Assembly: GCA_019828565.1 (NCBI GenBank)
Contig: JAHDYR010000005.1
Coordinates: forward strand, 271,100-335,099
DNA length: 64,000 nt
Direction: 5' to 3'
DNA from: Carpediemonas membranifera BICM
Taxonomy: Eukaryota > Protista > Fornicata
The translations under genes and the position numbers were made by a program. Positions 5,787 to 64,000 of this stretch are shown in pieces. Positions within the stretch are counted from its first letter, which is position 1. Every line of letters begins with the position of its first letter. The notes beneath the pieces are model-generated. The model searched no databases. It was not told the origin of the DNA and was given only the letters and a program-made list of their open reading frames with translations.

Positions 5787-7235
5787 ATGATCCCCAGCTC
5801 AATGATTGTCCCGTCGCTCGATGCCGACTTTAATTCTGAAGACCTACGCCGTTTCCAAACGGATCTTGCCCGTCTCAAGGCAATTACAAGAGACCGCAAC
5901 GTTCGTATGGCTACCTTCATGGCTCCCGAGACGCTGGACCTCCTGGAAGACTTCTTCGGAGAGGAGAATCTCATCGACGAAGACGACGAAACCATCGCGG
6001 ACTACTTGCATCGCTTTTTGGCTCCGTCATCCACTGCCGAGCTTAAGTCAAAGCTCCAAAGCCTCATTTGCCCCACAGACGAACATTCCGAACGTGTAGC
6101 ACTCATTCGCCAGTTTATTCGGTCCTTCCGTGCGACATTCGTCGACATGGAGGACAGCGACTCGGAGTCAGAGAGTGAGGGTGGCCTCATTGAGGAACAC
6201 GTCTCACAGATGGAGCGCCAAGCAATGAAGCTCTTCATCGATGCCCTGGAGCCGAAGCCGTTCCGAGAGGCGGTCAAATTTGCGGCCAAAGTCAAGCGCC
6301 CCTCGAACCTCAAGGCAATGTACTCCCTAGCCACCCGAGAAGCAAAGCGAGACGACGCGGCCCGCCAAGAAGCCGAACGTTACGGCTATTATAGGCCGCC
6401 CCAGGCAAAGACCAAGTCCAAGAAGCCCCGAGGCCAGACCTCCAAGCCTTCTCCGTCCGACAGTCGCTCTTCTCCAGCCGATCGTCGCGAGCCCCGCCAC
6501 AACAGCTCCGACAAGGCCAATGACGTCGACCCGGCCAAGAAGCCTCCCCATCGCCCTTGCTCTAGCTGCGGTGGCTGGCACTGGGACTCCCAGTGTCCGA
6601 CAGGCAAGCCCGAGGTGAACCTCCTAGAGAACGCCAAGCCCCTCATGACCTCCGGCCAAATAAATGGCCAGCAGTGTTCGTTTCGTTTGGATACAGGGGC
6701 GACGTTCTCAGCGGTGACGGAGGGAGCAGTGGAACAATTTCACTTACCAACTTGCACCGGGCCAACGATACACTACGTGACCGCTGATCAGCGAGTGTCG
6801 AAGACAAACACCTATGCCACCGCTACAATAATATTGGAGAGGCTGACGCCGGTTGACATCGAGATACAGGTACGGCTAGTGGTACTCCCAGGCGCTCCGG
6901 TCAAGACCATCGTCGGTCTAGACATTCTTCGCGAGCTCGGAGTCGTGACGAACGATGAACTCTTCATCAGGCTCATCGATAAGGCCGAGGATGGCGACGA
7001 TGGGGATGACATTGATGTTGAGATTAATCAGGTGGAGGAGACGTTGGATGACTCACTGTCGGCCATCACTGTGCCGGATTCAGACATAGCTCCCGACATA
7101 TGGGCGCTGATCCGGGAGTTTGCCGAGCTGTTCGGGGGACTACCCCCGGAGGGTTTCTACCCTTGGCCCCATGGCCATAGATACATCCGAAGACGCGCTC
7201 ATCCAGAGCCGCCCGAGACACCTGGGACCCCCTAA
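5787..7235 (+). CDS. gypsy A gag-protease
   Basis: CSSCGGWHWDSQC knuckle and LDTGA protease motif. Confidence 0.88.
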   Translation: MIPSSMIVPSLDADFNSEDLRRFQTDLARLKAITRDRNVRMATFMAPETLDLLEDFFGEENLIDEDDETIADYLHRFLAPSSTAELKSKLQSLICPTDEHSERVALIRQFIRSFRATFVDMEDSDSESESEGGLIEEHVSQMERQAMKLFIDALEPKPFREAVKFAAKVKRPSNLKAMYSLATREAKRDDAARQEAERYGYYRPPQAKTKSKKPRGQTSKPSPSDSRSSPADRREPRHNSSDKANDVDPAKKPPHRPCSSCGGWHWDSQCPTGKPEVNLLENAKPLMTSGQINGQQCSFRLDTGATFSAVTEGAVEQFHLPTCTGPTIHYVTADQRVSKTNTYATATIILERLTPVDIEIQVRLVVLPGAPVKTIVGLDILRELGVVTNDELFIRLIDKAEDGDDGDDIDVEINQVEETLDDSLSAITVPDSDIAPDIWALIREFAELFGGLPPEGFYPWPHGHRYIRRRAHPEPPETPGTP

Positions 7236-36492: not shown

Positions 36493-37162
36493 GCACGCCA
36501 CCGATCTCTCGACATCAAGGACCGTTACGGCTACCAGGCAGCCGCAGCTGTGAGCATCGCTTCAAAGGCTTTCATCGCCACCCCGCCGAGAGACGCCCAA
36601 CACACCGATGTTGCCACGCGCCAACTGGAGCTCGAGCAGCGCATTCTTCACACGCTGGCAAAATTTCCCCGTCTGGCCCAGGCTCAGCAAGAGCGCTCCG
36701 CCTTCAAGGCGGGCAAGCCCGGACCGAAAAGAAGCCGCCAGTAACAAGCCATCTTCAAGATCTCTCTCACCACCTCTCACACTCGCACATCCCTCCTCAA
36801 CGTCTCTCTCCTCCTCCGAGACTCCTCACATTTCCCACGATAGCCCGTCATCAGCTCTGGTCCGCCTCGGGAGCGCCCTCAGACGTGGTCTCGTGGATCG
36901 AGGCAGGCGTCCCGATCGAGATCACCGGGTCGCCACGTCAGCCCAAGCCCCGACCCCTATCGCCCGCGGCCTCCGAGTGCCTCCGACCACTCATGCAGGA
37001 GCTCGTCAAGTCCCAAGTCGTGCGCATCTGCAGTCGCAGGCCTCGTCTAGTCTCCCCCATATTCACTACTCCAAAGTCCGACGGCTCCCCGCGACTGATA
37101 CACGATCTCAGAACGTTGAACGACGTCACGAAGGAGCGGCGGGTGTTCCGCCTTTTCGGCCT

Positions 37163-37898
37163 CGCTGAAAGGAACGATTCAAGGACTCTACTTCTCCGTA
37201 GAACAGGGAAGTTTACAGGAAAGTCGCTCAATGCGAACTCCAAAGGACGCAAGGAAGTAATCATGAACGCCAGACGCATCCTCTTCGCAACCGGCGTCAC
37301 AGACAACAACACAGGACATCATTCTCAGAAACCCATGCGGCATCCACGGCCTCCGCGACCTTTTCTACATGCTCACAGAGGCGCTCAACCCCAGAGACGA
37401 GGAAGCTAAGGACATGGCACAGGCACTGGAGCCCAAGACGCTGAAAGCGGGCCTCACTGGCATGGCAAGATGGCCATCTGAGAAAGACATCGAGACGGCG
37501 ATCCTCAAGCCGAAGGAAGATGGACCCATCGAATGGGATGTAGACAGGGACAGCGTCAAGAAAGCCGAAGGGTCTTTCATACTGGTATCAGGGGCTCATG
37601 GAGACGAGGCCGTAAAAGGCGTACCTTACGACAAGGTATGGGATCCGGCAAACCAAGGCCCGATCACCAGAGTGGCCTACGAGCAAGAGGACGGCAAGTA
37701 CAGGGTCATCCTAGAGCTAGGCGACACGTCAGCATGGTCCATCAGCCGCTTCATGGAGGAGGCTAGGGACATCCTCAGGCTTCAGGCACCGGAGGCCCCG
37801 GCCATATGGCAGGCAGCATGGAACAAGTCAGGGATCTACCTGAAGGGCAGAACCAATATCCTGGGCGAAGGGGAGGAGACCCCCCTTAGCAACGAGCC
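37163..37898 (+). pseudogene. LINE ORF1 fragment (N-terminal region)
   Basis: NSKGRKEV..RRIL.ATG, LTEAL.PR and ISRF.EEARD.LRLQAPEAP match 55536-56400. Confidence 0.8.
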
Positions 37899-38379
37899 TG
37901 TACGGCAATTGCAAGTGCGTAAACGAAGAGTGTTTAATAGGGGGTTTAGACCACATATGCATAAATGGCCGAAACCAAATATCTGTATCTAATTCTGTAT
38001 CTATAAATATATCTTGCGATATTGCTATCTATGGCCGTGGTAGGGTATGATAGCAACAGTGCCTCCCTCTTCTTTTTTCTTTGGAGGTATTGGAGCTCTC
38101 TTTGCGCTTATACTTTTGCATAAATGCGTAGCGTAATTCTTTGAGGCATTTGGGGATGAGAATCGGTATTTGTACAATGAAGGTAGTACTAAGCAGCTAT
38201 CAGTATGTTACCTTCAAATCACGTGTTATTGAGCCTCAACAACGCTTCGTTGGCGAGTTCTGGCCGATTTTTCCTTCTGTTGGCGGAAAGCTGCAAGTGA
38301 CGGCTCAAAACCTTGTCGAAACATCTAAATAACAACATCAGTGTCTTTGAAAGGCTCAATGACCGCTATTGCTGTGCTT

Positions 38380-41641: not shown

Positions 41642-43265
41642 CAGGGAGCTTGAGTCGTTCAGGGACGCGGTCAGAGACGCGGAGCTGTCCAAGGACATCA
41701 TGAGGGGTGATGACTATGCGCCCAGGCAGGACACCTTCGACATCTTTGGGCACTATCCGTATGGCAGGGACGTCAGCGACGCAGAGGCAAACAGGATCCT
41801 CGTGGTACCAGACAACGAGCATCGGTACGGCATAGGCTTTGGCTTTGACGAGGTAGTGACAGGGATGAAGGGGGTGATGCTTGCCCCCCTAGCAATCATG
41901 GACGAGGACAACACGCTCAACAGAAGCCCAGTATGGACCATCATGGAGGCAGCCACAGACAACCAGCTCCGCATGGTGCGAAACAAGATGGGCAGAGGAG
42001 TAGCCAGGGACGAAGACATCATCACCATGTCACAGTTCTATTCATGGTGGCTCTCCAAGGAAGCATCAGCACACCAGGGAGTATGGGGCTGTGAAGACCT
42101 CGCAGCCAGCCTCAGGAGTTATGAGAAGCACATCGTCAACCTCAGGGTGCCGAAGAACAGCGACAGGCTATTCATTGGCGCCACGTTCATCCCCAGAGAC
42201 TGGGGCCTCATCAGGGTCCGTGAAGCAGGGAAAGTGCTGACGCGCATGCGAAAAGGGAAGGACAAAGACCTCAAGTCGGCTGCCGTCCCGGAGGAGCGCA
42301 AGGCCATAGTCGGCAGACTCCCGCCTAGGGACTACAGCCCGCTCATTCAGGGACTGTACGAGAAGCCATACAAAGTCAGATACGTGAACACAAGGCTTAA
42401 CGAGGCGGCAGCCATGATAGAGACCAGGATGAGGGGCAGACACATAGTGGCGCCCAGAGACAGGGACGACAGAGCTGATCGCCACCAGGATGACAGGGAG
42501 CAGGAACTACAGAGAAGCAGGGCTTTCGAGCGAGGGGATACTAGAGGCTACGACCGCCGGGACAACGATCATGACGACCGCCGGGGCGATAGGGACTACG
42601 ACCATCACGATGAAAGAACCGGCCGCTACCGGGACGACAGGGACCGGGAGACGGAGAAGGAGACCATCCTCGAGGACCCGAATAAGAGAAGGGACAGAAA
42701 CGTGGACGAGGACCACAGCGAGACGGAACTCCTCGACAGGGACGCATTTGGCAAGGACAGCTGGTCCACCACCGGGAGTGGCAGGGGTAGTAACAGGGAC
42801 AGCACGACTTCCAAAGGCTTCAAGCGGAAGAACGGCGGCCGGAGCAACGAGAACGGCCTAGAAGACCCAGCAGATGGCAAGAGAAGCAGGGAAGATGAGG
42901 ACCAGGACCAGACGTCTGGAAGCAGACATGCGTCTGACTGGGAATCGGACAGACTCCGCCTTCAGAAGCAGTTAGCTGAGGCTCAGCAGACGATCTCCAA
43001 ACTCAAGACAGCCCAGATAGCCGCACAGAAGCAGGGACCGGCAACAAGCAGTGAGGCCTCGACAGTGGCCCCAGGGCCCGGAGGGGAGAAGACGATCACC
43101 ATGGTGCCGAAGCGGAAGAAGAAGGCCAAGGCCAAGAAGCAAAGGATGGCCACCCAACCCAACCCGATGATGGACGCCATGGCCCAGTTCATGAACATGA
43201 TGGCGAGCATGCAGAGCCAGATGGGCCAACAGGAACAGGGCACAGGCGACAGTGACAGTGACAGC
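41642..43265 (+). pseudogene. LINE ORF1 fragment (C-terminal region)
   Basis: ILVVPD..G.GFGF..VV.GMKG..LAP and FIPRDWG..RVREA match 57500-58200. Confidence 0.82.
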
Positions 43266-44963
43266 TGTGGTTCAATGGGCGTTGAACTTTTACTGAGGAG
43301 AAGACTCGACACAAGGGTGTCAAGGAGAAACTCATTGACTATTAAATATAACGTAAATCTGTGTAACTTTGGGTAGGACCCACAACACTGCCCCTCCATG
43401 CCTGGTATAGGCATGACAGAGAGACTTGACGTCAGCATTTCACCAAAGGCCTGGACGGTGCCACCCGACCGCCAACGGTGACTCATAGGGCTGGAAACCC
43501 CATGGCCTGAGTGCTTTCGCATCAAGCTAAACGAAATCAAAATGATGGTATCATGATCTAACTGCGGTACCGCTAGGTGAGCTCTGTTTCAAAAATGGTG
43601 AAATGTGACGGAGAGGCTTACCACTGCCCCTCCACGGCCTTCCTAGGCCGTCTTCACAAACCTTATACGTGTTATATGCCTTGCCATGTAATTCGAAGGC
43701 CAAGAACGATTGCTCTAGCAAACACTGCCAATGCTGAGCCCTTATCGCTCATAATCACACAGACGCCGAAAAACGTACTTAGAAGCTCCAATTCGGCTCC
43801 GTTGAGGAGTTCAGAGGCTTCTAATTTTCTGCGTCCAACTGTACTTGAATAACAACATCAAACTGACCGGAAGGAGCACTAGGAAGCTCCTAATGCCTTA
43901 TTACCGACAATAAATGCATGCTTGAAGACCAAGAAGACCTTGTTAGTTGTTCCTTCGACCGTTTCCGAGAAAAGTGCAGGATATGTCGCCGTCAACTCAT
44001 TTGATGTCGGACAACACAGCCGTAGAGGCCGTTCTGAAGGAAATTCGTGCCAAAATCACCGAACTTGGTGATGACGATCTGGCTAGGCCACTTATTGTTG
44101 CCCATACGTCCGTTTGTCGTTCCCTTCACGCTCAGAAGTATCGTGGACGCAAGCGCATGGTCACCGACAATCTGTAAGTATTTGTAAGAACAAACATCAA
44201 CCGTGAGGTTATATAGCCACCGCGTGCAAGCTTCAGAACGCATCACTCGCACCCTGAAGATGACGACTCTGATGCCCCACGACATCAAGGCCGAGGTTAC
44301 CCTGTGGTTCGTTTGACGAACTATGTTTACAAGAGGAGAAGACTCGACACAATGGTGTCGAGGAGAAACTCCTTGACTAACTAATATCATATATAAATCT
44401 GTGTAATCTTGGGTGAGACCCATGACACTGCCCCTCCATGCCTCAATGAGGCATGACCCCAGACAGCGTGAGCTTTGACGGCTGGCTACTGCCAGTGGGG
44501 GTGAATGTTGGCTCTTGGGGGCCGGTCCTGGTGGGTGCCAACCACCGATCGAGCCCCTTTTTTGCGACCTTGGCGGGGACACAACAAGAAGCACAACGAC
44601 GTGCAAAATAGCACAGCTTACAATCGCGCGGTACCGCTGGGTTAGAAGGATCCTACCATAGGGGTTCTGCCCCTCCTCGGCTTTTCCTCGCCGAAAATCG
44701 AAATGTGACGTACCTTAAAATGCTTGGGTGCAGGTTATGGCCATCCAAGCACAACGATGGTGAAACACCGCCCCTTTCCAACTGTTTGCGCCATTAATCA
44801 GGTTGGTGCTGAAAATGGCATTTTCAGGCCTCAACGAGGCCTCTACGGCGAGATACGAGCCTTTTTCTTTGCAGCGTGAATTCACACCACGACTACGCTC
44901 AGATAGAGCTACTAAACGACTAAACAACATCAAGACAACAATAAAGAGATCATAACTCCATGT

Positions 44964-51598: not shown

Positions 51599-52760
51599 TC
51601 ACGCAGTTCCGCGCCCTATGGGTGGCGGGCTACTCGGACCCAATCACACTGGACACGGAGGAGCTCCCGGACGGAGGACACATCGGCGACTTGGACATCT
51701 ACAAGAAGATCAAGGCCGAAGCTCTGGCCCAAGCCAATACGGACAAGGACGACCATGAGGACGCGGAGGGGTCGGGGGAGGAATCCCCGGAGGAATCAGC
51801 CAGGAAACGTACCCCCTCACGGTGGACATCTCGGCCACCCTGGACGACGATGCGGACAACGTGTACTGCAAGCCAGACAGCCCTCCCCCCATGGAGTACC
51901 TGAACGCAGTGTCCACCCTAGAGGAAGACCACACGGAAGGTACGGACAAGACTAAGGTTTGGCTATGCTCAGTCGACGTGGAGTCAGTGGGCACCCCCAA
52001 GGACGACAGAGGAGTGGACGAGATTTATTCGGAGGCCGGAGCGATCATCTATGATCCATATCGGAAGGAGATTAAGGGGTTCCGCCACGGACTCCTGGCC
52101 CACGACCTACCAGTGGCGATGCTCAACCAGAGCCTGGACACCTCATGGAGAGTTCACGGACTGCCCCCCTGCACCTTTGTGGACATCTACACCGGAGCCC
52201 CTCCCCAGAACATGAGAAGACACTTCGTGGGCTTCCACGTATATGCTCGGACATTGAAGGAGGCCATCACCCAGATGGAATCGGACAACAAGGTGAAGAT
52301 CATGATCTACGCTAAGGGCAGCACGATGGAGGAGAGAGCTTTCTGCAACTGCTCTCCAACCCCATTTGGACCATGGACAGATCGAACAGACTCACGGCGG
52401 ACCAGAAGGCCTCAGGCCAATCCATGGAGAACCTGGCCACCACACACACGAAGGACTGGCTCTCGGTGAGCAGACTACTCAGAGTATGGCCAGCCCCGTA
52501 CGAGTCGGCCAAGCAGAACAACTGGTCGGATGTGGAACTGGCGGACATGATCCCGAAGGACCTCACAAAAGCACTAGCAAACATGGACAGCGGACGGATT
52601 AAGCCCAGCTTCCTCCCGAAGGATTGGGGAATCTTCAAGGGAGATGCTGCCGGCAACATTATGGACAGGATGACGTACCTGTGGAACCGGGACAAAGAAG
52701 AGCAGGTGGCCACGGCCCACATGGACGACCCAGAGCCCTTCGTGCCCTTCGTGACCTGGC
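51599..52760 (+). pseudogene. third LINE ORF1 fragment with partial DEDDh-like domain
   Basis: VDVE..EAG..HGL..VHGLPP.TFVD..YAKG..ME and FLPKDWG match the ORF1 at 56700-58000. Confidence 0.78.
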
Positions 52761-52821
52761 ACGCGGCGGGATCGCGCTTGATTGCATCCGTCGCTTTCTC
52801 CGGCACACCGCCGGTCAACCC

Positions 52822-53433
52822 ATGACTGACACGGCAGTCATCGCGGCGTTCCTGGATCGACTCTCTGCCGAACGCCGGGCGGATACCCTCATCCCTAATG
52901 CGCTCCGCACGCTCCTGGATCGTAGCAGTCTTCCAGCCCACGCGATCCGACACCACGTGCGTCGAGCTATCATGCTCGGTCACGAGCCGGTAGTGTATCT
53001 TCTCATGACACTTGGCCACAGCCAGGGCTGCTTGGACCCCAGCGAGGTTCAGCTGATGCCCGAGCTCTACCTGCGGCGGGTCCGCCGGCCCAGTGGCTTC
53101 GGCGTCCTCAACATCTCGCCGCTTCAGGGCTTCACCATGAAGCCGACTCGCGATACCTGCCCTACCCTGCTCCCGGACACCAATGACGTGACTTGCGAGT
53201 ATATGCCCGTTGCTGTGTGGGGACACCGGCTCGACCACGGCCGACTGCGTCTGCTGGTATCGTACCCGTTGAATCGGCACGGTGGACAGTATCTTGCGAT
53301 CATCCGAGTCACCGACGACACGGCCAAGATCGCGTGCATCAAAGACTATCTCGAGTGGCTCAGGCTGGTCAATCGTACTGAGCGGCCTGTTGACTACAAC
53401 GGCGTGGAAATTCGGAGGGCTCGGATCGTATAA
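52822..53433 (+). CDS. antisense cargo ORF of gypsy H with degenerate chromodomain-like C-terminus
   Basis: Convergent with H pol; YMPVAVWGHR..LRLLVSY..IKDYL. Confidence 0.5.
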   Translation: MTDTAVIAAFLDRLSAERRADTLIPNALRTLLDRSSLPAHAIRHHVRRAIMLGHEPVVYLLMTLGHSQGCLDPSEVQLMPELYLRRVRRPSGFGVLNISPLQGFTMKPTRDTCPTLLPDTNDVTCEYMPVAVWGHRLDHGRLRLLVSYPLNRHGGQYLAIIRVTDDTAKIACIKDYLEWLRLVNRTERPVDYNGVEIRRARIV

Positions 53434-53453: not shown

Positions 53454-55520
53454 TTACTGCTGCCCTACTGCAGTACGGTGCAACCCACGCTCCTCCAAGA
53501 AGTCCTCGAACTTATCGTTACCGTCAAGGTTAAGGAAAGGTTCCCACGTCGCCTCCTCGGGCTCATAACCCAGCCACTCAACCCGGAACAGGTGATCCTC
53601 GATGGGCCCGTCACGGTCGCTATCCGTGACGGCGGATGGCGTGAACTCAGGCGCTACCGTAGACGCAAGTCGTAGGAGCTGGTCCTGTGACATGTCGGCA
53701 TGATCAAACGGGACCACGCGGGACGCGTCCACTCGGGATTCTGTGCCTTTCTCGAGGTCCCGGACAGTGTATGCCACCACTTTGTTGGCGTGCGAGTGGG
53801 TTCGGACGAGGGCCATAGGGCCCCGCAGACCCGCTGCAAACTTGTCGGGTGGGCGGCTCGGGTAGGCTACCAAGACATATGGTGACGTCACAGTGGGGCG
53901 TGCGTCCGGTCGCATCTGCTGGAGCAGTCTCCTGTCGCGTATACGCTCCGCTGCTAGGTGCCTACACGCCTTGGCCTCGGTCAACCAATCTTCCTGGCAG
54001 TCGACAAGATACGGCTGATCGGGTGCGATGAAGAGGATATCCTTCGGCACGCGCATCTCAGAGCCGTACACGATCTCCGAGGGAGACAAGTGTGTCGGGA
54101 CTCTAGGTGTGGAGTTCACAAGGTACTGGGCTACTGGTAAACCTTGTACCCAGTCGTTCGACCGGAACTCGTACCGGCGAGCCGTCAAGATGTCCTTGAC
54201 CGAAACGTTCGCTCTCTCAACTAGGCCATTGGACTGTGGATGATAGGCCGTCGTTTTGGCCATGGTAAAACCGAGTCGGCTGGACGTTGAACACGGCATT
54301 GACGAATTGAGTTCCCCCGTCGGTCTGGACGACCTTGGGGATGCCATATCTTAGGACCCAGTGGTTGACAAACGCACGAGAGGTTTCCACGGCTCTCGTG
54401 GACTGTAACGGGACAAGCTCGGTCCATCTAGAACACATGTCTATTATTACTAGGACATACTTGTAGGTCACCCCGTCCATGGTGCATCGGGTTGCGGACA
54501 TGGTGTCCATAGCGACCCTGTCAAACGGGTGTTCGACAGCTGTATGAAGGCCAGCGTCAGAGGATGCCGGTGGCTTGCGGCGAAGCTGACATATTGGGCA
54601 TTGTCGGACATAATTATCCACGTCCTTCTGTCGGACCCTTAGACCCCAGTCTCGAAGCAAGTTCTTGGTCGCCCAAGCTGAAAAATGGGCTCCTGCGAAA
54701 TGATGTGCCTTGTGTAGCTTGTCGGCCACTTGAGAGTCCAGGACGTTGGCGTACAGGCGCGACAGGCCGTCGGCCGCTCCGTTGTCCACGCCAGGGACGT
54801 GCCGAATGGTGAAATCGAGATCGGATAACTGGTCATACCAGCGGCGCACCTTGGGGTTAACTGAGCGAGCCATGAATAGGAGATTACGATGGTCGGTACG
54901 AATAGTGAAATGGGACCATACGAGGAACTTCCTCCATCTCTGTACCGCGAGAATGATGGCATATGCCTCCTGCTCCGTTGTGCTCCATCGCGTCTGCACT
55001 CCAGTAAAGGCGTGAGACATGAATGCGATAGGCTTACCGTCCTGAAGCAGGACAGCGCCGCAGCCAACATCAGACGCGTCTGTCATCAAGACGTGATCTG
55101 TGTCGGTCTTATAATGCACCAACGAAACGCGCTTGAGTAACTCCCTGGCCACGTCGTCGAGAGCGGCCTGCTGACCGGGGCCCCCCGGCTCAGCCTTGCC
55201 AGCGGATGCTTGGAGTAGGGGATAAGCTCTGGAAGAAAAGTGATCGACAAAATCACGGAAGTTGAGGAACCCCACCAAGGCTTGTGCCGAACGCTTGCTC
55301 TTGGGGATCTTGAGCTTACGAATGTCCTCGATCCGGTCTTCTGCGATACGCACGGAGTCACCGGACACGAGTCGGCCGAGGAACTCGACCTCTGCGGCAG
55401 CGAACACACACTTGTCACGGCCCAGGTGCAAGTCATACTCCTCGCACCTCTTGAGCACATCCCACAGGTTACGTAAGTAGGATGGTTCATCACGGCACAT
55501 GACAATATCGTCGATATAAA
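53454..55520 (-). pseudogene. gypsy H RT(partial)-RH-IN-chromodomain
   Basis: YIDD near 55510, TDAS, integrase, FRVEWLGY..TWEP. Confidence 0.88.
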
Positions 55521-55535
55521 TTACATTTCAGACGA

Positions 55536-58500
55536 ATGTTGGTGAAAGTACCGGAAGCTACCAGGAAACGAACACAAGACCAGTGGGAAGCTATCAGACA
55601 GGAAACCAGCGCATATCTAGCTAACAGACAGGACGGAAAGACGCTGATACTCAGGTGGAACGGCGACATCAAGGGGAAATCCTTCGGGAAGAACTCCAAG
55701 GGCCGCGAGGAAGTAGCCCGTAACATCAGACGCATCCTACTAGCTACCGGAGCCACTGCTATCAAGGACTCTATCACTACTCATCCCAAAGGCATCCTAG
55801 CTCTGAAGGAACTCTTCATTGTGCTAACGGAAGCCTTGGATCCCAGAGAAAAGGTAGAAACCGAGATACAACAGAGCGCCGAAGCTATCAGCATCCAAGC
55901 CACAAAAACCTCAGCAAGTGGCCGTCCGAAAGCACCATCGAGAAACTAGTCCTCAGCCCCACCACCAACTGCTATCAGACACACAACGACAGCCTCTACT
56001 GGTCCAAAGAGCGTGATACTGTTGTTATCAGAGCACCGGACACTTTCACCATCACAGCAGGCCCCCCCGGCAAAGAACGAGCCACCACTGCTACCAGAAG
56101 AGACGTCTGGGACCCCAAAAACCCTGGCACGATCACCCAAGTGGCCCTGGAACAACAGGACGGCAGCTTCAAGGTCATCCTGGATCTCAAGGACCACGAG
56201 GCCTTCGCTATCAGTAGATTCTCGGAGGAAGCGAGAGACGTTCTCCGACTGCAAGCACCCGAAGCGCCGGCAGCGTGGATGGCAGCCTGGAACTCCACCG
56301 GCATTCCACTGGGAGGAAGAGTCATCATCTGCAAGCCGGGTGAGGAGTCCCCTCTCGGCGAGCTACCAGCCTTCGCAGCTATCAGATCACTCATCCTCGA
56401 AGCCATGTTGAACAGTAGTGAGAAGACCTATCCCCAGGAAGATAATGCAAGCAGCAACAGCACCGACGTCGACGAGGAAGAAGAGGGCGAACAGGAACCC
56501 GACGCCCCCGAGCCCAAGCAGAAGGATAAGGTGAGCTTTGACGAGCTATTCGGGGACCTGAAGCCTGTAGAGCCTCGACCCCGCGACGCCAAGCAGTCCT
56601 CCTCCACCCAGAAGCCGTTACCAGACCCGCTTGCCAGAAGCCCAGACCCCAAGGCCCACCCACGGCAGCTAGCAGACAAGGAGCCAGAGCCCAAACCCAC
56701 CCTCTTACTTGCGGCCATAGACTTCGAGTGCGGCCACTCAGGCTGTGAGAGTGAAAACGTCCCAGCAAACCCAGTGGAGGGCGGAGTCATCGTCTTCAAC
56801 CCGCTAACAGGGGAGATATCAGGGCACGGGCACGGTCTCTTCTATCAGAACATGCCGGTACAGCAGATTGACCAGGCGAGGTACGCATCATGGGCCATCT
56901 CCGGCCTGCCGCCAGCTACCTTCGTCGATGTCGCTACTGGGATGCCCCCGGAAGAGTTCAGAACGCACTTCTCAAAGTTCACAGACTGGGCCGAACACCT
57001 TGCTATCAGACTCAGGAGGATGGAGGACGCAGGCGAGTTCAAGATCGTACTATACGCTAAGGGCGTACACATGGAGAAGTTTCTGCTCACCAACCAAGTC
57101 AACGGGCTATCAGGGGAGGTAACCACCTACTTCGCGGACAGGCTAGTCGATGAGAAGGATCTCCCAGACGCTATCAGAGACTTAGAACCCAGACTAGCGG
57201 GCGCTATCAAGGCCAGCCTCCAGGACGAGAGGACCATGGGATGGCTCAACTCCTGGAGCAGTGGGTGGCAACGCAGGAGCGAGCCAAAGGCGGTGTGCCC
57301 CTACCACAGGTATGCAGCCGGCCACTACCACTGCGGGCTGGCCGATGTTACCATCTTCACAGTCAAGACCTTGGCCATGACCCACTCCTTCCGATGCCAG
57401 CAAGACAGAGAGAGCTTCCTCGGTGATATACTGCCCAAAGCTATCAGCTCCGTCGCTCAAGCAGATCTGGAAACGGACCTCTTCGGCGGTAACAGCTTCG
57501 CTAACAGACAAGAAACCTTCGAGATCTTCAGAGGCCAACCTGGCAGAGTGAGCCTGAGAGATGGCAAAGAGGGTAACAAGATCCTAGTAGTACCGGACAG
57601 ATACAGCAGATTTGGCATGGGCTTCGGCTTCTCAGATGTGGTTAAGGGTATGAAGGGTCTGCTACTTGCGCCCGCAGCTATCAAGAGAGGGAACGTCATC
57701 GACAGGAACCCGGTGTGGTCCCTCCTCGAGCACGTCGAACCTGACGAGATGGCATGGCTCCAAGCCGAGCACGGCCTCGGAGTAGCCCCCCTCGAGCTAT
57801 CATCAAGCTATCAGACGTCTACCACTGGTGGCCCGACAAAGCCACGACAGCTCATAAGGATGGATACGGCTGCCAACTGCTAGCAGAAGACTGTGCCGAG
57901 TACGCTGAAATCATCGCGAACATCAAGGCGTACAGAGGCAGAGTCGAAGGCTTCAGAGCAGCATTCATCCCGAGAGACTGGGGCGTGGTGAGAGTCCGTG
58001 AGGCTGCCACAACGCTCCGCCGCATGGCCAGAGACAAGACGACCGACAGACTCACCCCAAACCCGATCCCAGAAGAGAAGCCAGTCAGATTCATGGGTAG
58101 ATCCCCGCCCCACTACGTCCCAAAGGACCAGAACCCCGAAGAAGCCCCCTACGTCCTAAGGTACGCCAACACAGGGATGCCCGAGAAGCTCGAAGCTATC
58201 AGAAGACGGTTTGTCGGCACCACGACTGACCAAGGTCCCAGGCCGCCCCACAGACCATCTCCCAGACCCTCACAGAGAAGAGATTACAGAGGCGCAGATA
58301 ACTTCAGAGGCCGTGACAGCTGGATTGACCAGCGCACGCCACCCACGTCCCCTTTCGGCAAGAGCAGAAGCCAGCAAGACAACTATCAGTGCAGAGAGAC
58401 ACCCCCCTCCTCCAACTACTCCAGCGGCACGTACAAGAGGAACTCCCTCTACAGAGGCTCACCATACGCATGGGAGAACAAGCGGCGGACAGACGACCAC

Positions 58501-58752
58501 TCAACGGGCACTGAGAGAAGCAGACTATCGGGGCCCCGCGAGGATGAGACTACCAAGATGCTCCAGACCCAACTAACAAGAGCCCTCAGAGAGATCGACG
58601 AACTCAAGCAACGCATCGAACAAGACCGCACCTCAGACCTCAGATGCTCAGGCAAGCCCAAGAGCAAGAAGAACAAGAGGATCAAGAAGCTGATCAAGCT
58701 ACTGGACTCAGAGGACAGCGATGAGGATGTGGAGGACAAGGAGGAGGACTGA
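55536..58752 (+). CDS. LINE ORF1 (~1000 aa, several frameshifts) with DEDDh/Maelstrom-like domain
   Basis: ORFs 55536-55949, 56141-57883 and 57754-58752 are collinear with the other copies. Confidence 0.75.
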
Positions 58753-58885
58753 GTGGGGTAAGCAGGTAAACAGATTCTTCTTCAACAACAGAAAATTATC
58801 AGATTCTTTTATTGCTCTTTCAGCGTAAAAATGAACAATTGGTTTTGATTCATTCAAAGTTCTGCTCACAAATTGAAGAGAGTGA

Positions 58886-59815
58886 ATGGTCGTAACTGAT
58901 TCAGAGAGACTGAACATAGCAACACTTCTCGGAAGTGAAATGTCTATAGCAAACATTGCACGCGTAACGGGCCGTTGCCGCAATGTCATCTATGATATCA
59001 AGGCCAATAGAGCGAAATGCTCTGGAAAGAGAGTGAGATCAGCTACCAAGATGAGCCCAGAAGTGACGAAGTATGTACGTGACTATGTTCTCCAGAATCC
59101 GGCTGCTCGGCTTAGCGACATAGCCACTGTCGTGCAGCTGAAGTTCGGTATTTCAGTATCGCTATCCAGCCTCTCCCAGACGATACTACACAAAGAGAAG
59201 CTTACGCTCAAGGTCGGTGACACCAGATGGATGGAAAGGAATCCAGAGGAAGCCTGGCGTTTCCGTTCATTCTACGCAACGGAGATTGCCCCGTACTATT
59301 CCACCGATCAAGTCTTCTTCCTCGACGAGACTAGCTTCGACCCCCGTCACCTGGCGGTCAAGCGAGTGCGTGGCCCAAAAGGCGTTAGGACATATGCTTG
59401 CCGCAAGGGTGGCCCGGTCGGCCAGCGTTACTCGGTGTGCGCGACTCTTGGCGTCGAAGGGATCAAGCACAGAGTCATAACGACAGGTACATTTACTGCT
59501 GACAAGTTTCTAGACAATACCATAGAGTTGCTGGGGATGATACCGGGGTGCGTCCTCGTGATGGACAATGCCTCCATACACGCACTCAAGGGCAAGCTTG
59601 ACGCCCTAATGCAACTCTATGATGTCCGCATCGTCTTCCTCCCTAAGTATTCGCCATTCTTGAACCCAATCGAGGTTGTGTTCGCGTGGATCAAGGCGTT
59701 TGTTCACACGCACTTTAAGGACATGGGGCGTTTGCCGGCAATACTCGCCGCCTTTGATGACGTTGCCAAGAAAAACATAAGAGGTCTCTACGAGAAGCAT
59801 GGATATTCCCATTAA
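58886..59815 (+). CDS. Tn2 DD35E-spaced transposase (intact)
   Basis: FLDETSF, MDNASIH, YSPFLNPIE. Confidence 0.95.
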   Translation: MVVTDSERLNIATLLGSEMSIANIARVTGRCRNVIYDIKANRAKCSGKRVRSATKMSPEVTKYVRDYVLQNPAARLSDIATVVQLKFGISVSLSSLSQTILHKEKLTLKVGDTRWMERNPEEAWRFRSFYATEIAPYYSTDQVFFLDETSFDPRHLAVKRVRGPKGVRTYACRKGGPVGQRYSVCATLGVEGIKHRVITTGTFTADKFLDNTIELLGMIPGCVLVMDNASIHALKGKLDALMQLYDVRIVFLPKYSPFLNPIEVVFAWIKAFVHTHFKDMGRLPAILAAFDDVAKKNIRGLYEKHGYSH

Positions 59816-59821
59816 AGCTGT

Positions 59822-60271
59822 TTATTCTCTCAATTCTTGGCTGGATGCAACAGATAGAGCTGGCTGAGAAGGTTCGCTGCGCTCTGCTTCCTCCAAAGAC
59901 GCAAGGAACGAGATAACGCGAGAGTACCACTCGGGCTTCACTGGGATGGAGATAAAGCCGTGCGACACTTCTCTCCGCGGTGCAGGCTGATAGTCAGAGG
60001 ATGAGGGCGTCGAGTGCGGCTTCAGGAGACCGGCGGGAGGATTAGCGACAGTGGCATGTCCTCGCATGATCTCGAATGCCCATGCGGCAATCATCCTTCC
60101 AGGGAGAGCCCGTGCAATCTCCGAGTTCTCCACCAACGTCCTCATTCCCTGTGTTATCGCGGAGTTATCAACATTACCATCCTCAGCTGTAGATAAAACA
60201 TCTTTGAATGGGCATCCAGCCCTGTTGTGGTTCTTGCAGCTGCACAGGCTACACGTTACAGTTCTCACCAT
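59822..60271 (-). CDS. Tn2 accessory CCHC protein
   Basis: CSLCSCKNHNRAGC; homologous to 4050-4520. Confidence 0.85.
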   Translation of the reverse strand: MVRTVTCSLCSCKNHNRAGCPFKDVLSTAEDGNVDNSAITQGMRTLVENSEIARALPGRMIAAWAFEIMRGHATVANPPAGLLKPHSTPSSSDYQPAPRREVSHGFISIPVKPEWYSRVISFLASLEEAERSEPSQPALSVASSQELRE

Positions 60272-60593
60272 CTGTCGTCAATCAAAAAGTTCCAGGCCTA
60301 ATCAAAATGATGTTCATTTTTAGAGTAAAAGAGCAATACAAACACAATCCTGGCTCCCACCCAGGACCTGGCATTAGCCAAGAAGGGCACTGCCAGTGGG
60401 CTGCAGCGACAGCCAAAGGGGGGGTCACGCCAAAGCGCCCCCTCCTAAGTCAATTGCCAGAGAACTCAATGGTCACCAGAGCACAAGTATTTGGCCTAAC
60501 GGGGATCACCTGAGCCGGCACTGAGGCCCCCGTTAGGACGCGGCTATCAGAAATTCTAGGAAATTCGCAGGATAAGAACCAAGCAGAATCAAC

Positions 60594-63500
60594 ATGGAAA
60601 GAACTAGTATAATCAGTCTCAACTCTCAAGGTCACATTGGGAAAGGGAAGGACTTTACTGCATCCATCGCCACAGCACTACAAGCGAGAATCAAGAATAC
60701 AGAAGCGTTATGCATCCAAGAAACATGGCGCACGGCTAACACGAGGATCCACTGCTTTGCAGACTTCGATTATGCCATGGCTGGTCGAGAAACAGAAGAA
60801 AACCTGCTAGCAGAGAACGAGAAGAGCAGAAGAGAAGCTAACAGACATCGACGCATCAATAAGCGGTTCGGGCTAACAGAAGAAGTCCCATTGCCAAGGT
60901 GGAAGGGCACAAGGGAAGGTATAGGCACAGTGATCAGCCCACACGCCAAGGGAGAATGGGAAGTCGGAATCACAGACAGCCTGTCGGGCAGAATACAGGC
61001 TAGCATACTCAGAACCAGTCGGGACCTATTGATCATCAACGTGTACGGCCCGACTACCGATAAGAAGAAAGAGGTCAAGGACAAGTTCAAGGCTGACCTG
61101 CAGGACATCTTAGACATGAAGGGCGACATGGAAGCTATCATAATTGGAGACTGGAACATGAAACCCGATAGGGCTAGCAGAGCTATCAGATGGAAGGACT
61201 TAATGGCTAGGTTCAAGCTCCGGGCAGTGTACACAAGCGACCACACGTACCCATCTGGGAAATCTAGACCGGACTTCGCGATGGTCTCGGAGGGCATCCG
61301 AGAAGCAAAGGTGGAGACGGTAGAGCCCCAGACAATAGGAGTGTGGGGTTCCTCCCACAAGGCTATCAGACTATCGTGGGACGAGCCGAGGTACCCGGAA
61401 ACTGAGCCCAGGACGGACCCCCAGCTGGAAGTCCCGGAGGTCACCACCTGGAAGATGAAGAAGAGAGGAAACCCTACTACCATCAAGACACTTAGGGAGG
61501 GACAGTCCATTGACCAATGGGAAGAAGCTATCAGAATATCCGTGGGGAAGCCAACCCGGACCAGGGAACCGAAGGAGACGAGCGAAGTCTTCCCCAGCGA
61601 AGTATGGAACAAGCTGCAGCGCACAACGTGGTCTGAGGCAGGCAACACGACAAGGTTGGCTATCATGAAAGACAGGCTATCGGAGTACTGGAACAAGCGT
61701 AGAGAGAAATGGGTGGATGAGCTAGGCATGAGCTCCAAGGAAGGATACAAAACGTCGAGGGCAAACGTCGAGGCGGCGGTCAGACGCTGGTGGTGTGAAA
61801 ATCAATACAAGGGCATGCCGAGAAGCCTGCTAAAGGACGGCAAGATCACCACCGACAAAGAAGCTATCAGTGAAATCCTCCTCGAGCAATACGCAAAGGT
61901 AAGTAAGGGAGATGAGCCGGAATGGAAAACGTGGCGGGGCAGAGCTGGGAAGGAGTTTAAGACAGAAGAGATCAGAGAGGCTATCAGACGCATCAAAGCA
62001 GACACAGCAACAGGGCCGGACAACACATCAGGAGATATGGTTAGGAGCCTGGACAGCTACGGGTACGAACAGCTAACAAAGTTCTTTAACCGAATCTACG
62101 AGGAGGGAAGAATACCGGAAGTGTGGAAGTATGCAACGGTATCTGCTATCCACAAGACTGGGAAACCCAGAGTCAAGGCGGAATCGTATAGGCCTATCTC
62201 GCTAACACCAATCCTGTACAGAGTCTACGGCAGACTACTGAAGAAAAGGCTAGAGGATGCCGCATGGAAATTCATACCCAGAGAGCAGGCGGGGTTCCAA
62301 GCTAACAAAGATGTGATCCAACAAATCCAATACATAGTACAGCGCCATCAAGAAGGAGGGGAAACCACGTCAGTATTCTTGGACATCGAGAAGGCCTATG
62401 ATACAGTCCCAAGGGACATCTTGATGGACAAGCTATACGGGATGGGTGTGAAGGAGCACCTGGTCAGAGCTATCCAGAGCACGCTAACAGAAACGTGGAT
62501 CTCCGTCAGGGGGGCAAGATCATGGAAGAAGACGAACAGAGGAGTGAAGCAAGGGTGTGTACTCGCCCCCACTCTCTTTATCCTATTCATGGCTAACTGG
62601 CCCCACCTGGCAAGGAAGATTCATGAGCAGCAGGACTACGATATCAGAGAGCCACCGCTACCAGTAACAGGAAGGGACCCGCTACCAGCAGCCCTAACCA
62701 TGTTTGTCGATGACACCGCTATCACAGGAACCACCCCAGAGCAGTGCCAGACGGTCTCGAGAATCATGATGAGCATCATCGAGGAGCACAAGATGAGAGC
62801 GAATGCGATGAAGAATGTAATGATCAGCGTATCGTGGGCAGCAAGGGTGAACTTAGGAGGAGTCGGCCTCACCCCGGCGAAGGAAGCTCGGTATCTAGGA
62901 CTGTGGCTATCCAGTGGACCAGACCCGCTAGCAGCATGCATCCAAAAGAAGAGGGAACAGAGCATCAGGTACCAAAGGCTGTGCAGGTGGGCTGGATGGA
63001 CGAGAAGGGACATGCCGGCAATGGCTAGCAGACTACTCCTTGAAATTTATATATGGCCGAGAATCATGTTTGGGGTTGAAGTGTGGGGAAGCCAACCAGG
63101 AGGTACGAGAATCTGGAATGAGTGGCAAGGAATCATGGCCGGTACAGGAACAGGAGGCGGATCGGCGGTGAGAATACTGAACGGATGGGTCGACCTGCGA
63201 GCCCATCTCGAACTGCTAGCAGTGAAGAGGGTGGCAGCTTTCAGAGACCTGGATATACCAGTCAAGGACAGGAGTTGGAATGAGGGGACAATCATGGGAG
63301 AGAGCAGAGAGAGGGCTAACAGAGTGCTCCACAAGGTAAGGGGCGACGCTACCACAAAGGCCAGGGTAAGCTATGGGAAGGAAAGGATTAGAATGAGCTG
63401 GATCAAGAGATGCAAGAGCAAAACAGCCCAGGGGCTGATGGCGGTCGCGGGGACCCGGAGAATGGCCAGGTGCATGATGGGCAAACCAATCGTCAGAAGG

Positions 63501-63997
63501 AAACCAATCAAAGGCCAGTCAAGAGCGGATTGGAAACGAGTGCTATCAGTAGCGGCAAATGTAAGCCCCTCCCCCTCCTCAGCAGGAAAAGGAGAAGGCC
63601 CCCAGAGAGTGCTAGCAAACCTGACCATAGATGAGGACCTGAAGAGGAAATTAGCAGAAGGTGCCCACTCTGCTCGGCAACAACGGAGGTCGACCTGTTA
63701 TGGGAAATCCTGGAAAGGAAACCGGATGACGAGGAAGAACAGGAGATGATCAGGAAATGGGTCCAAGAACAAGCCCTGGGGTCGGCCGCCCACATCATAG
63801 GCGAATGTCCAAAGGTAGACAGAGGGCCCAAGTGGAGTAGATGGTGGGAAGCAGCGAAGTCCAAAACAGAATACCTAGCTATCAGATCAGGACCGGATGG
63901 AGACTGGTACAACGAAAGGCCGATATTAGAACTGCAACAGCTTATCCTCTGGGAGAAGGAAGAGATATGGGAGGGGCTGAAGGGACTCAGGCCCTAG
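60594..63997 (+). CDS. LINE ORF2: APE endonuclease, RT, C-terminal zinc motif (frameshifted near 3' end)
   Basis: SLNSQG, IQETW, NVYGP, GDWN; YRPISL, DIEKAYD, GVKQG, FVDD; CPLC...HIIGEC in the shifted frame. Confidence 0.93.
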
Positions 63998-64000
63998 GAG

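Follow-up and report, generated by a model that had tools for sequence, protein, structure and literature searches.

In a 64,000-nucleotide (nt) stretch of the genome of the free-living fornicate protist Carpediemonas membranifera BICM (assembly GCA_019828565.1, contig JAHDYR010000005.1, positions 271,100 to 335,099 of the forward strand; hereafter the window), we describe a long interspersed nuclear element (LINE) whose first open reading frame (ORF1; 55536..58752, + strand, about 1,070 amino acids (aa)) carries a predicted DEDDh 3′-5′ exonuclease domain with a Glu-Cys-His-Cys (ECHC) zinc site (56699..57400, + strand). The prediction draws on AlphaFold2, Foldseek and VIA-align, on a check of residue register against solved structures, and on conservation among relatives. 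The element is an apurinic/apyrimidinic endonuclease (APE)-type LINE, in which an ORF2 with an APE and a non-LTR reverse transcriptase (RT; LTR, long terminal repeat) follows ORF1 on the same strand, and the nuclease domain is the central part of the ORF1 of this family of Carpediemonas LINEs.

Predicted catalytic and zinc-binding residues of the nuclease domain

A first-pass annotation, made from the sequence alone, had proposed a LINE-encoded nuclease like those of Maelstrom (MAEL) and the arenavirus nucleoprotein (NP), and all the motifs that it quoted lie in one + strand frame (55724-57883). With residues of the domain counted from base 56690, the DEDDh catalytic positions are the Exo I acids D11 and E13 (codons 56720 and 56726), the third acid E129 within AKGVHME (Exo II; codon 57074), which is a Glu and not an Asp, the general-base His H214 (codon 57329) and D219 (codon 57344). 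The predicted zinc ligands are E30 in the motif PVEGG (codon 56777), C203, H206 and C215 (codons 57296, 57305 and 57332). The six frames of the window contain a single instance of the signature C-x2-H-x7-H-C-x3-D, against a mean of 0.0 in 100 shuffles of the translations. Searches of Pfam and PHROGs gave no family for the domain.

A profile search against 1.84 billion representatives returned 17 hits, two of which (P0015 and P0020) were repeat-driven and were dropped before any counts. The closest protein record among the 15 family clusters that remain is J8273_5492 of C. membranifera (P0001), 99% identical over the domain; the others share 25-51% identity with the window domain. The claim that the catalytic residues are retained with the third Asp replaced by Glu extends to the whole family, in which these positions are nearly invariant among the hits that cover them (D11 10/11, E13 11/11, E129 10/10, D219 10/10, H214 9/10), as are the zinc ligands (E30 11/11; C203, H206 and C215 each 10/10); D154, at strand beta5, is also invariant. 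Glu at the third acid position has also been described in coronavirus nsp14 (PMC8310078) and in DEDDy ORFs of bdelloid retrotransposons (PMC5408684).

Predicted fold and structural matches

The domain was modelled with AlphaFold2 from a five-sequence alignment (predicted local distance difference test (pLDDT) 71.9, predicted template modelling score (pTM) 0.73), a single-sequence model with pLDDT 31 having been discarded. In the model, three long strands are followed by helices and then by beta4, a further helix, beta5 and a closing helix, in keeping with the order beta1-beta2-beta3-alphaA-beta4-alphaB-beta5-alphaC of DEDDh exonucleases; D11 and E13 are on strand E4-16, and H214 and D219 are at the last helix. 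E129 lies in helix 127-134, after strand 117-123, so that its assignment to Exo II is one by topology and not by residue superposition.

With E values of at most 0.001, Foldseek matched the model to 50 PDB chains; all those listed, to rank 49, are DnaQ-like; against BFVD, the named matches are mostly exonucleases. The 50 entries listed in a wide VIA-align search of 48,161 chains are likewise all DnaQ-like nucleases or proteins containing such a domain, including RNase T (Z 10.7, root-mean-square deviation (rmsd) 4.0, 165 residues aligned), 3′hExo (Z 10.6), Bombyx Maelstrom (Z 9.6 and 9.3) and Drosophila Maelstrom (Z 9.1, 173 aligned). In a second look, Bombyx MAEL (5af0_C; Z 10.2, rmsd 4.4) gave the longest alignment among the 50 rows listed, with 178 residues; RNase T reached Z 10.9, and the matches to RNase T and ERI1 are at 10-13% identity. 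An independent Atlas model of residues 415-650 of P0002, another relative, matched exonuclease-type clusters at TM 0.57-0.62, and an Atlas feature search gave an arenavirus nucleoprotein cluster at 0.89, which is a lead only; no Maelstrom cluster is among the Atlas matches listed, which excludes nothing. AlphaFold2, Foldseek, VIA-align and Atlas agree on the DnaQ/RNase H-like fold on which the first-pass annotation had made its claim depend, and by these models the domain almost certainly has the DnaQ fold.

Register of the predicted zinc site with Maelstrom and arenavirus nucleoprotein

To compare individual residues, the ends of the structural alignment ranges were extended without gaps to the positions concerned. 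In three of three rows, C203, H206, C215 and D219 fall on Bombyx C290, H293, C302 and R306, the first three of which are zinc ligands and the last of which occupies the fourth DEDD position (PMC4408791). In Drosophila MAEL, the counterparts of E30 and H206 are E131 and H291 (numbers from PMC4408791). D11, E13, H214 and D219 fall on D389, E391, H528 and D533 of Lassa NP (PMC3429428), D11 on D382 of lymphocytic choriomeningitis virus (LCMV) NP (PMC8310078), and D11, E13 and D219 on D12, E14 and D167 of the E. coli epsilon subunit (PMC4408791 and PMC3429428). An ECHC finger has been described as common to MAEL and the arenaviral exonuclease (PMC7968707). The MAEL residue set has also been written EHHCHC, with two further His (PMC2628886); in the LINE domain, His is variably present in the HG and xGLPP motifs, which would be candidate sites for these two.

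The spacing of the C-terminal zinc loop is that of MAEL (C-x2-H-x8-C-x3) and not that of Lassa NP, and the seven residues between the two His leave no room for the basic arm K516-R519 of Lassa NP. As modelled, the ECHC site is very probably present, and it is this predicted site that makes the LINE domain MAEL-like. The Maelstrom/NP-like claim is supported, with a qualification: the DEDDh fold is predicted and the ECHC and D-E-E-h-D residues are in register with MAEL and Lassa NP, whereas overall structural similarity does not favour these two over RNase T and ERI1.

Organisation of ORF1 and its linkage to ORF2

ORF1 starts with an N-terminal domain of about 300 aa, which an acidic and proline-rich low-complexity linker joins to the nuclease; a conserved domain some 200 aa long and a low-complexity tail come after it. 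The conserved domain after the nuclease (57450..58000, bounds approximate, + strand), of unknown fold, aligns in P0001, P0002, an independent locus (L001) and both window paralogues described below; it ends in AN...F[IV]P[RK][DE]WG, with the AN...P motif in 9 of 11 proteins tested, and had no usable match in the Atlas. The tail has a likely coiled coil, and coiled-coil Pfam families score weakly on relatives. No Pfam match to RRM, CCHC, PHD or esterase domains was obtained in the ORF1 proteins, a result that still allows a very divergent RRM in the N- or C-terminal domain, and a match to Rhabdo_ncap (E 0.36) was rejected since it falls on the acidic linker.

The window copy of ORF1 is spread over three frames (55536-~55930, ~55900-~57790 and ~57784-58752) by two apparent frameshifts, either real or due to assembly errors, near 55900-55930 and near 57790, both of which are read through in P0001 (98% over the main frame) and P0002. 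In L001, where the domain is 35% identical, ORF1 is a single unbroken frame of 1,234 codons. The window copy of the LINE is frameshifted and interrupted, and is probably inactive.

ORF2 (60594..63997, + strand) encodes an APE endonuclease (Pfam Exo_endo_phos_2, 1e-4), an RT (RVT_1, 1e-33) and, beyond a frameshift near 63650, a C-terminal CxxC...HxxxxC motif (63635-63997, shifted frame) which, judging by eye, we take to be a zinc knuckle. Among solved structures, ORF2 is best matched by human L1 ORF2p (1e-15) and R2, and no RNase H domain was detected in it with Pfam. The window ends three bases past the ORF2 stop, and L001 ends inside the APE. The two ORFs do not adjoin in the window: 1.8 kb lie between them, including an IS630/Tc1 DNA transposon that is not part of the LINE (58807..60341, + strand; transposase 58886-59815, with a DDE_3 match at E 3e-19 and a helix-turn-helix), which is bounded by terminal inverted repeats of 31 nt (58807-58837 and 60311-60341, 84% complementary). 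Once this Tc1 is removed, the spacer is about 306 nt. AT skew is 0.31-0.35 in the LINE flanks against 0.03 in the Tc1.

Linkage of ORF1 to ORF2 in other copies, which the first-pass annotation had left for confirmation, was found in two records. In L001, the ORF1 stop at 6311 is followed, after a 373-nt spacer, by the start of an APE frame at 6685 that is 28% identical to the window ORF2 (E 7e-18). The second is the 908-aa protein J8273_6114 of C. membranifera (P0016), which holds a nuclease domain 25% identical to that of the window together with an APE at residues 661-822 (Pfam E 6.5e-9). This record could reflect either a natural fusion or an artefact of gene-model joining; in the first case, it would represent a LINE with one ORF, in which nuclease and ORF2 are fused. 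We accept the linkage because of the order of frames in L001, the co-occurrence in P0016, and a dispersed 8-mer, GCTANCAG, and an AT skew that ORF1 and ORF2 share to the exclusion of the Tc1.

Paralogues and distribution of the family

Two further ORF1 relatives lie in the window. The first is a divergent remnant (51948..52825, + strand; tblastn and alignment) in which the N-terminal half of the nuclease, reported in the first-pass annotation and recovered by tblastn at 51948-52349 (36.6% identity over 134 aa, E 1e-23), is joined to the end of the C-terminal domain. This copy lacks the C-terminal half of the nuclease and is read as an internal deletion, because the N-terminal half runs straight into the downstream conserved domain. 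Its second codon positions agree with those of the main copy and L001 at 0.60 and 0.56, against 0.38 for third positions, as expected with selection on the protein. The C. membranifera record P0007 reproduces the frames at 51.9-53.4 kb of the window. The second relative, from which the nuclease part is absent, is in two pieces on the + strand (37161-37902 and 41655-43270) with a Gypsy element on the - strand between them. With three ORF1 relatives in the window and records on several contigs, this is a dispersed multi-copy family.

The eight of the 15 family hits that carry a species name are all from C. membranifera, and the other seven are on contigs of 3.8-10.8 kb. A locus search of 208 candidate stretches yielded two loci (L001 and L002). 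The profile search of the 1.84 billion representatives reached no Maelstrom or viral protein; a word-index search found no stand-alone relatives of 130-415 aa (0/832 candidates) and no longer relatives, covering 1487-4245 aa only (0/6946); no relatives were found on viral contigs among 38 and 10 candidate stretches; and phages gave no match to the nuclease domain. Of 12 candidate stretches on prokaryote genome contigs, three were called relatives, with no locus returned for them. The generality of the finding is thus limited, the family being seen so far in Carpediemonas records and on short contigs only.

Several records of the family are of interest in themselves. J8273_5905 of C. membranifera (P0014) covers the C-terminal half of an ORF1 related to the 52-kb copy; its zinc ligands are kept but Leu stands in place of the general-base His, which would reflect either copy decay or an inactive subfamily. 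P0018 (KAG9395705.1), named 'Splicing factor U2AF', is the C-terminal part of an ORF1 of this LINE, its name probably being a mis-annotation caused by the Arg/Asp-rich tail. L001 carries an IS630/Tc1 transposase fragment at 3-386 (DDE_3, E 1e-9), about 2.2 kb upstream of the related ORF1. In L002, the N-terminal part of the related ORF1 is broken by a stop, and an inverted microsatellite, (GTAAG)n then (CTTAC)n, lies at 233-338, about 600 nt upstream.

Proposed function and alternatives

Other LINE ORF1 proteins are typically abundant and coat the RNA of their element. By analogy, translation of the element RNA would yield many copies of the ORF1 protein (ORF1p) of the Carpediemonas LINE, which would coat that RNA, so that an RNA-coating protein and an ECHC exonuclease would be joined in one chain, which is the layout of arenavirus NP. 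D11, E13, E129 and D219 would hold two Mg or Mn ions and H214 would activate the water, nucleotides being removed singly from free 3′ ends. Intact copies probably encode an active two-metal 3′-5′ exoribonuclease, which would be carried at high copy in the LINE particle; that its substrate is RNA is likely, if slightly less so. As for its role, we tentatively favour counter-silencing, in which the enzyme would degrade the small or antisense RNAs by which the host would silence the element, because the layout resembles that of NP, because MAEL is linked to small-RNA pathways and because there are LINEs that have captured a viral suppressor helicase. Such a helicase, with weak silencing-suppressor activity, has been described in insect LINEs (PMC5563155), and Lassa NP has been reported to digest double-stranded RNA (dsRNA; PMC3429428).

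A number of observations speak against an active, LINE-encoded relative of the Maelstrom and NP enzymes that acts on silencing RNAs. At the level of sequence, neither the domain nor its relatives have a Pfam match to Maelstrom (PF13017) or NP, and searches of PDB chains with single sequences and profiles gave chance matches only, with no MAEL or NP among them; in one of these searches, the profile had grown to 805 positions because all of P0002 was in it, and the HMMER filters discard most matches above E 0.1. D11 is replaced by Tyr in P0001 and H214 by Leu in P0014. The model is of moderate quality, with 35 of 237 residues at pLDDT <50, among them 209-212 in the zinc loop. By Z, MAEL is no more than level with RNase T and ERI1 (10.2 vs 10.7-10.9, a difference within 1 being a tie), the arenavirus NPs score lower by 3-4 in the wide search (LCMV NP 7.2, Lassa NP 6.8), and several of the close folds act on DNA (TREX1, ExoX and complexes of RNase T with single-stranded DNA (ssDNA)). 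In the register test, which is indirect, two MAEL rows place D11 at 120 and not 122, and E30 maps to Bombyx 139-141 and not to E137; E30 has no exact mapping in Bombyx or Lassa, where loop lengths differ. The equivalent of Lassa G392, the glycine of dsRNA specificity, is Gly in 2 of 11 members and mostly Cys, Ser or Ala. Neither window paralogue has an ORF2 behind it, both being cut by LTR elements, and none of the papers listed in a literature search mentions Dicer or Argonaute in Carpediemonas.

Because the loop spacing is MAEL-like and the G392 equivalent is Gly in those two members only, the dsRNA specificity of NP cannot be transferred to the LINE nuclease, for which such specificity is unsupported. 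The MAEL spacing, the missing basic arm and the mostly non-Gly equivalent of G392 make the active MAEL of Entamoeba (EHI_192630) the nearest functional model, and not a dsRNA-specific enzyme. This protist protein, with DEDD and ECHC residues, has been described as an active exoribonuclease, shown on single-stranded RNA (ssRNA; PMC4408791), and by analogy the LINE domain would work like it, with no match to PF13017.

The alternative that survives best, which we regard as possible though less probable than counter-silencing, is an active exoribonuclease that processes the RNA of the element itself, either by trimming read-through transcripts to a usable 3′ end or by removing the RNA template behind the RT in place of an RNase H. 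In the latter variant, the RNA strand of an RNA:DNA hybrid would be degraded 3′ to 5′, the direction of target-primed reverse transcription. ORF2 is without a detected RNase H domain, and RNase T and ERI1, which head the structural matches, trim 3′ ends; yet many LINEs, including human L1, work without an RNase H of their own, and few enzyme copies would be needed whereas ORF1p is typically abundant. Lassa NP is reported to digest the RNA strand of RNA:DNA hybrids (PMC3429428), and 3′-end processing has been proposed for the bdelloid DEDDy ORFs (PMC5408684). The host is described as having no typical RNase H1, but also as having two expressed prokaryotic-type RNase H1 homologues (PMC8516963).

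We consider it improbable that, as in animal Maelstrom, the domain has little or no catalytic activity and serves as an RNA-binding module that helps to package the element RNA. With fold and zinc site retained, Bombyx MAEL binds ssRNA but is inactive (PMC4408791); Pfam detected neither RRM nor CCHC elsewhere in ORF1, and P0014 is without the general-base His. However, animal MAELs have lost the catalytic residues, whereas nearly all clusters of the LINE family, down to 25% identity, retain the His and all four acids, which RNA binding alone does not need. Equally improbable is a DNA 3′-5′ exonuclease, which would remove flaps where the element inserts or destroy cDNA made by competing retroelements. 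Structures of TREX1, ExoX, DnaQ and RNase T with ssDNA are among the matches at Z 9-10.9, PML-like DEDDh exonucleases have been reported to restrict L1 (PMC10123124), and the window is packed with Gypsy and DIRS elements; against this, the two characterised ECHC-type nucleases act on RNA (PMC4408791, PMC3429428), and an abundant DNA exonuclease in the particle would endanger the element's own cDNA. A host gene or unrelated element that merely sits upstream of the LINE ORF2, for which one might cite the 1.8 kb with a transposon between the ORFs, the two paralogues without an ORF2 and the lack of a significant blastp match of the P0016 APE to the window ORF2 (best E 0.097), is very improbable and largely refuted by the comparable spacers in L001 (373 nt) and the window (about 306 nt without the Tc1), by the 8-mer and strand bias common to ORF1 and ORF2, by the LTR insertions that cut the paralogues and by the many divergent, often broken copies.

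A dispersed 8-mer in the element

The sense-strand 8-mer GCTANCAG occurs in 38 copies between 55557 and 63885 (+ strand), 19 in the ORF1 part and 19 in the spacer and ORF2 part, with none in the Tc1 and two on the + strand of the other 55.5 kb of the window. ORF2 holds 17 copies against a mean of 1.8 (maximum 6) in 300 synonymous-codon shuffles, and the ORF1 part 12 against 1.75 in synonymous shuffles; copies fall in two codon phases, and GCTATCAG accounts for 19 copies. The 8-mer is absent from the window paralogues, L001 and L002. The excess suggests selection for a dispersed RNA- or DNA-binding site in one subfamily. Only those copies in which N is A look like a branch point fused to a 3′ splice site, and T is the commonest fifth base; the diplomonad consensus sequences are described as longer and as fixing CTAAC (PMC6679479).

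Transposon landscape of the window

All the long frames scanned across positions 1-64000 (16 frames; Pfam) are transposon genes, belonging to nested chromodomain Gypsy, DIRS-type (with tyrosine recombinase), IS630/Tc1 and LINE elements, and an Rfam scan of 55000-64000 gave no matches. The elements have near-identical junction repeats of 65-220 nt in common, retroelement ORFs before about 37 kb lie on the + strand and the Gypsy elements at 38-55 kb on the - strand, and one DIRS-type element has a weak match to Dam methyltransferase at 686-2665 (E 1.5e-4). Such an element-packed stretch may represent heterochromatin or else a centromeric cluster, in an organism whose kinetochore is unusual.

Relation to known systems and implications

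The LINE domain shares with the Maelstrom MAEL domain (PF13017; Bombyx 5AF0, Drosophila 4YBG) the DEDDh fold and ECHC ligands in register, and with the protist MAEL of Entamoeba the retained catalytic residues. Unlike Maelstrom, it is encoded by a LINE, in a multi-copy ORF1 of ~1,100-1,250 aa and not in a host silencing-pathway gene, has no detected HMG box and no Pfam or sequence match, and has Glu as the third acid. It resembles the arenavirus NP exonuclease (Lassa 3R3L, LCMV 4O6H; PF17290) in the DEDDh residues in register, the ECHC zinc finger and the joining of the nuclease to what is likely the RNA-coating protein of a selfish replicon, and differs from it in the lower Z (6.8-7.2), the mostly Cys, Ser or Ala equivalent of G392 and the missing K516-R519 arm. 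RNase T and ERI1/3′hExo have the DEDDh active site and the highest Z, but are not described with an ECHC zinc site (PMC7968707).

Among retroelements, the closest parallel is offered by the DEDDy ORFs of the bdelloid Juno and Vesta LTR and Athena/Terminon elements, which are also captured DnaQ-like exonucleases with a change from DEDD to DEED, some of them with a Cys-His-Cys motif, and for which the same two roles are proposed (PMC5408684). The bdelloid ORFs, however, are ORF3s of LTR and Penelope-like elements and encode RNase D-like DEDDy enzymes, whereas the Carpediemonas domain is DEDDh with ECHC ligands and lies inside a non-LTR ORF1. As a two-ORF APE-RT LINE with an enzyme captured in ORF1 and with a likely coiled coil, the Carpediemonas element is comparable to the LINE ORF1 types I-V, which include esterase ORF1s (PMC4120745), and to insect LINEs with a viral SF1 helicase (PMC5563155). 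The ORF1 types are listed with RRM, CCHC, coiled coil, PHD and esterase (PMC4120745); of these, RRM, CCHC, PHD and esterase are undetected in the Carpediemonas ORF1, and in that 448-element survey no word begins with 'nuclease'. Among the papers listed in literature searches, whose coverage excludes subscription journals and Repbase, none describes a LINE ORF1 with a nuclease like that of MAEL or NP.

In the literature consulted, the ECHC-type DEDDh nuclease appears in two settings, Maelstrom in host defence against transposons and arenavirus NP in viral counter-defence. The Carpediemonas LINE would add a third, inside a transposon and with the catalytic residues kept, and LINE ORF1 proteins would gain an enzymatic class. 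That a LINE lineage captured an active ancestral Maelstrom nuclease and turned it against the small-RNA defence of its host is a speculative, rather unlikely scenario; if true, ORF1p would be the retrotransposon counterpart of arenavirus NP, and retroelements a possible carrier of the domain between cells and RNA viruses. The family provides a small expressible domain that could show whether a retrotransposon carries a silencing suppressor or an RNase H substitute of its own, and it offers a new branch from which to trace the relationship between MAEL and the arenaviral exonuclease.

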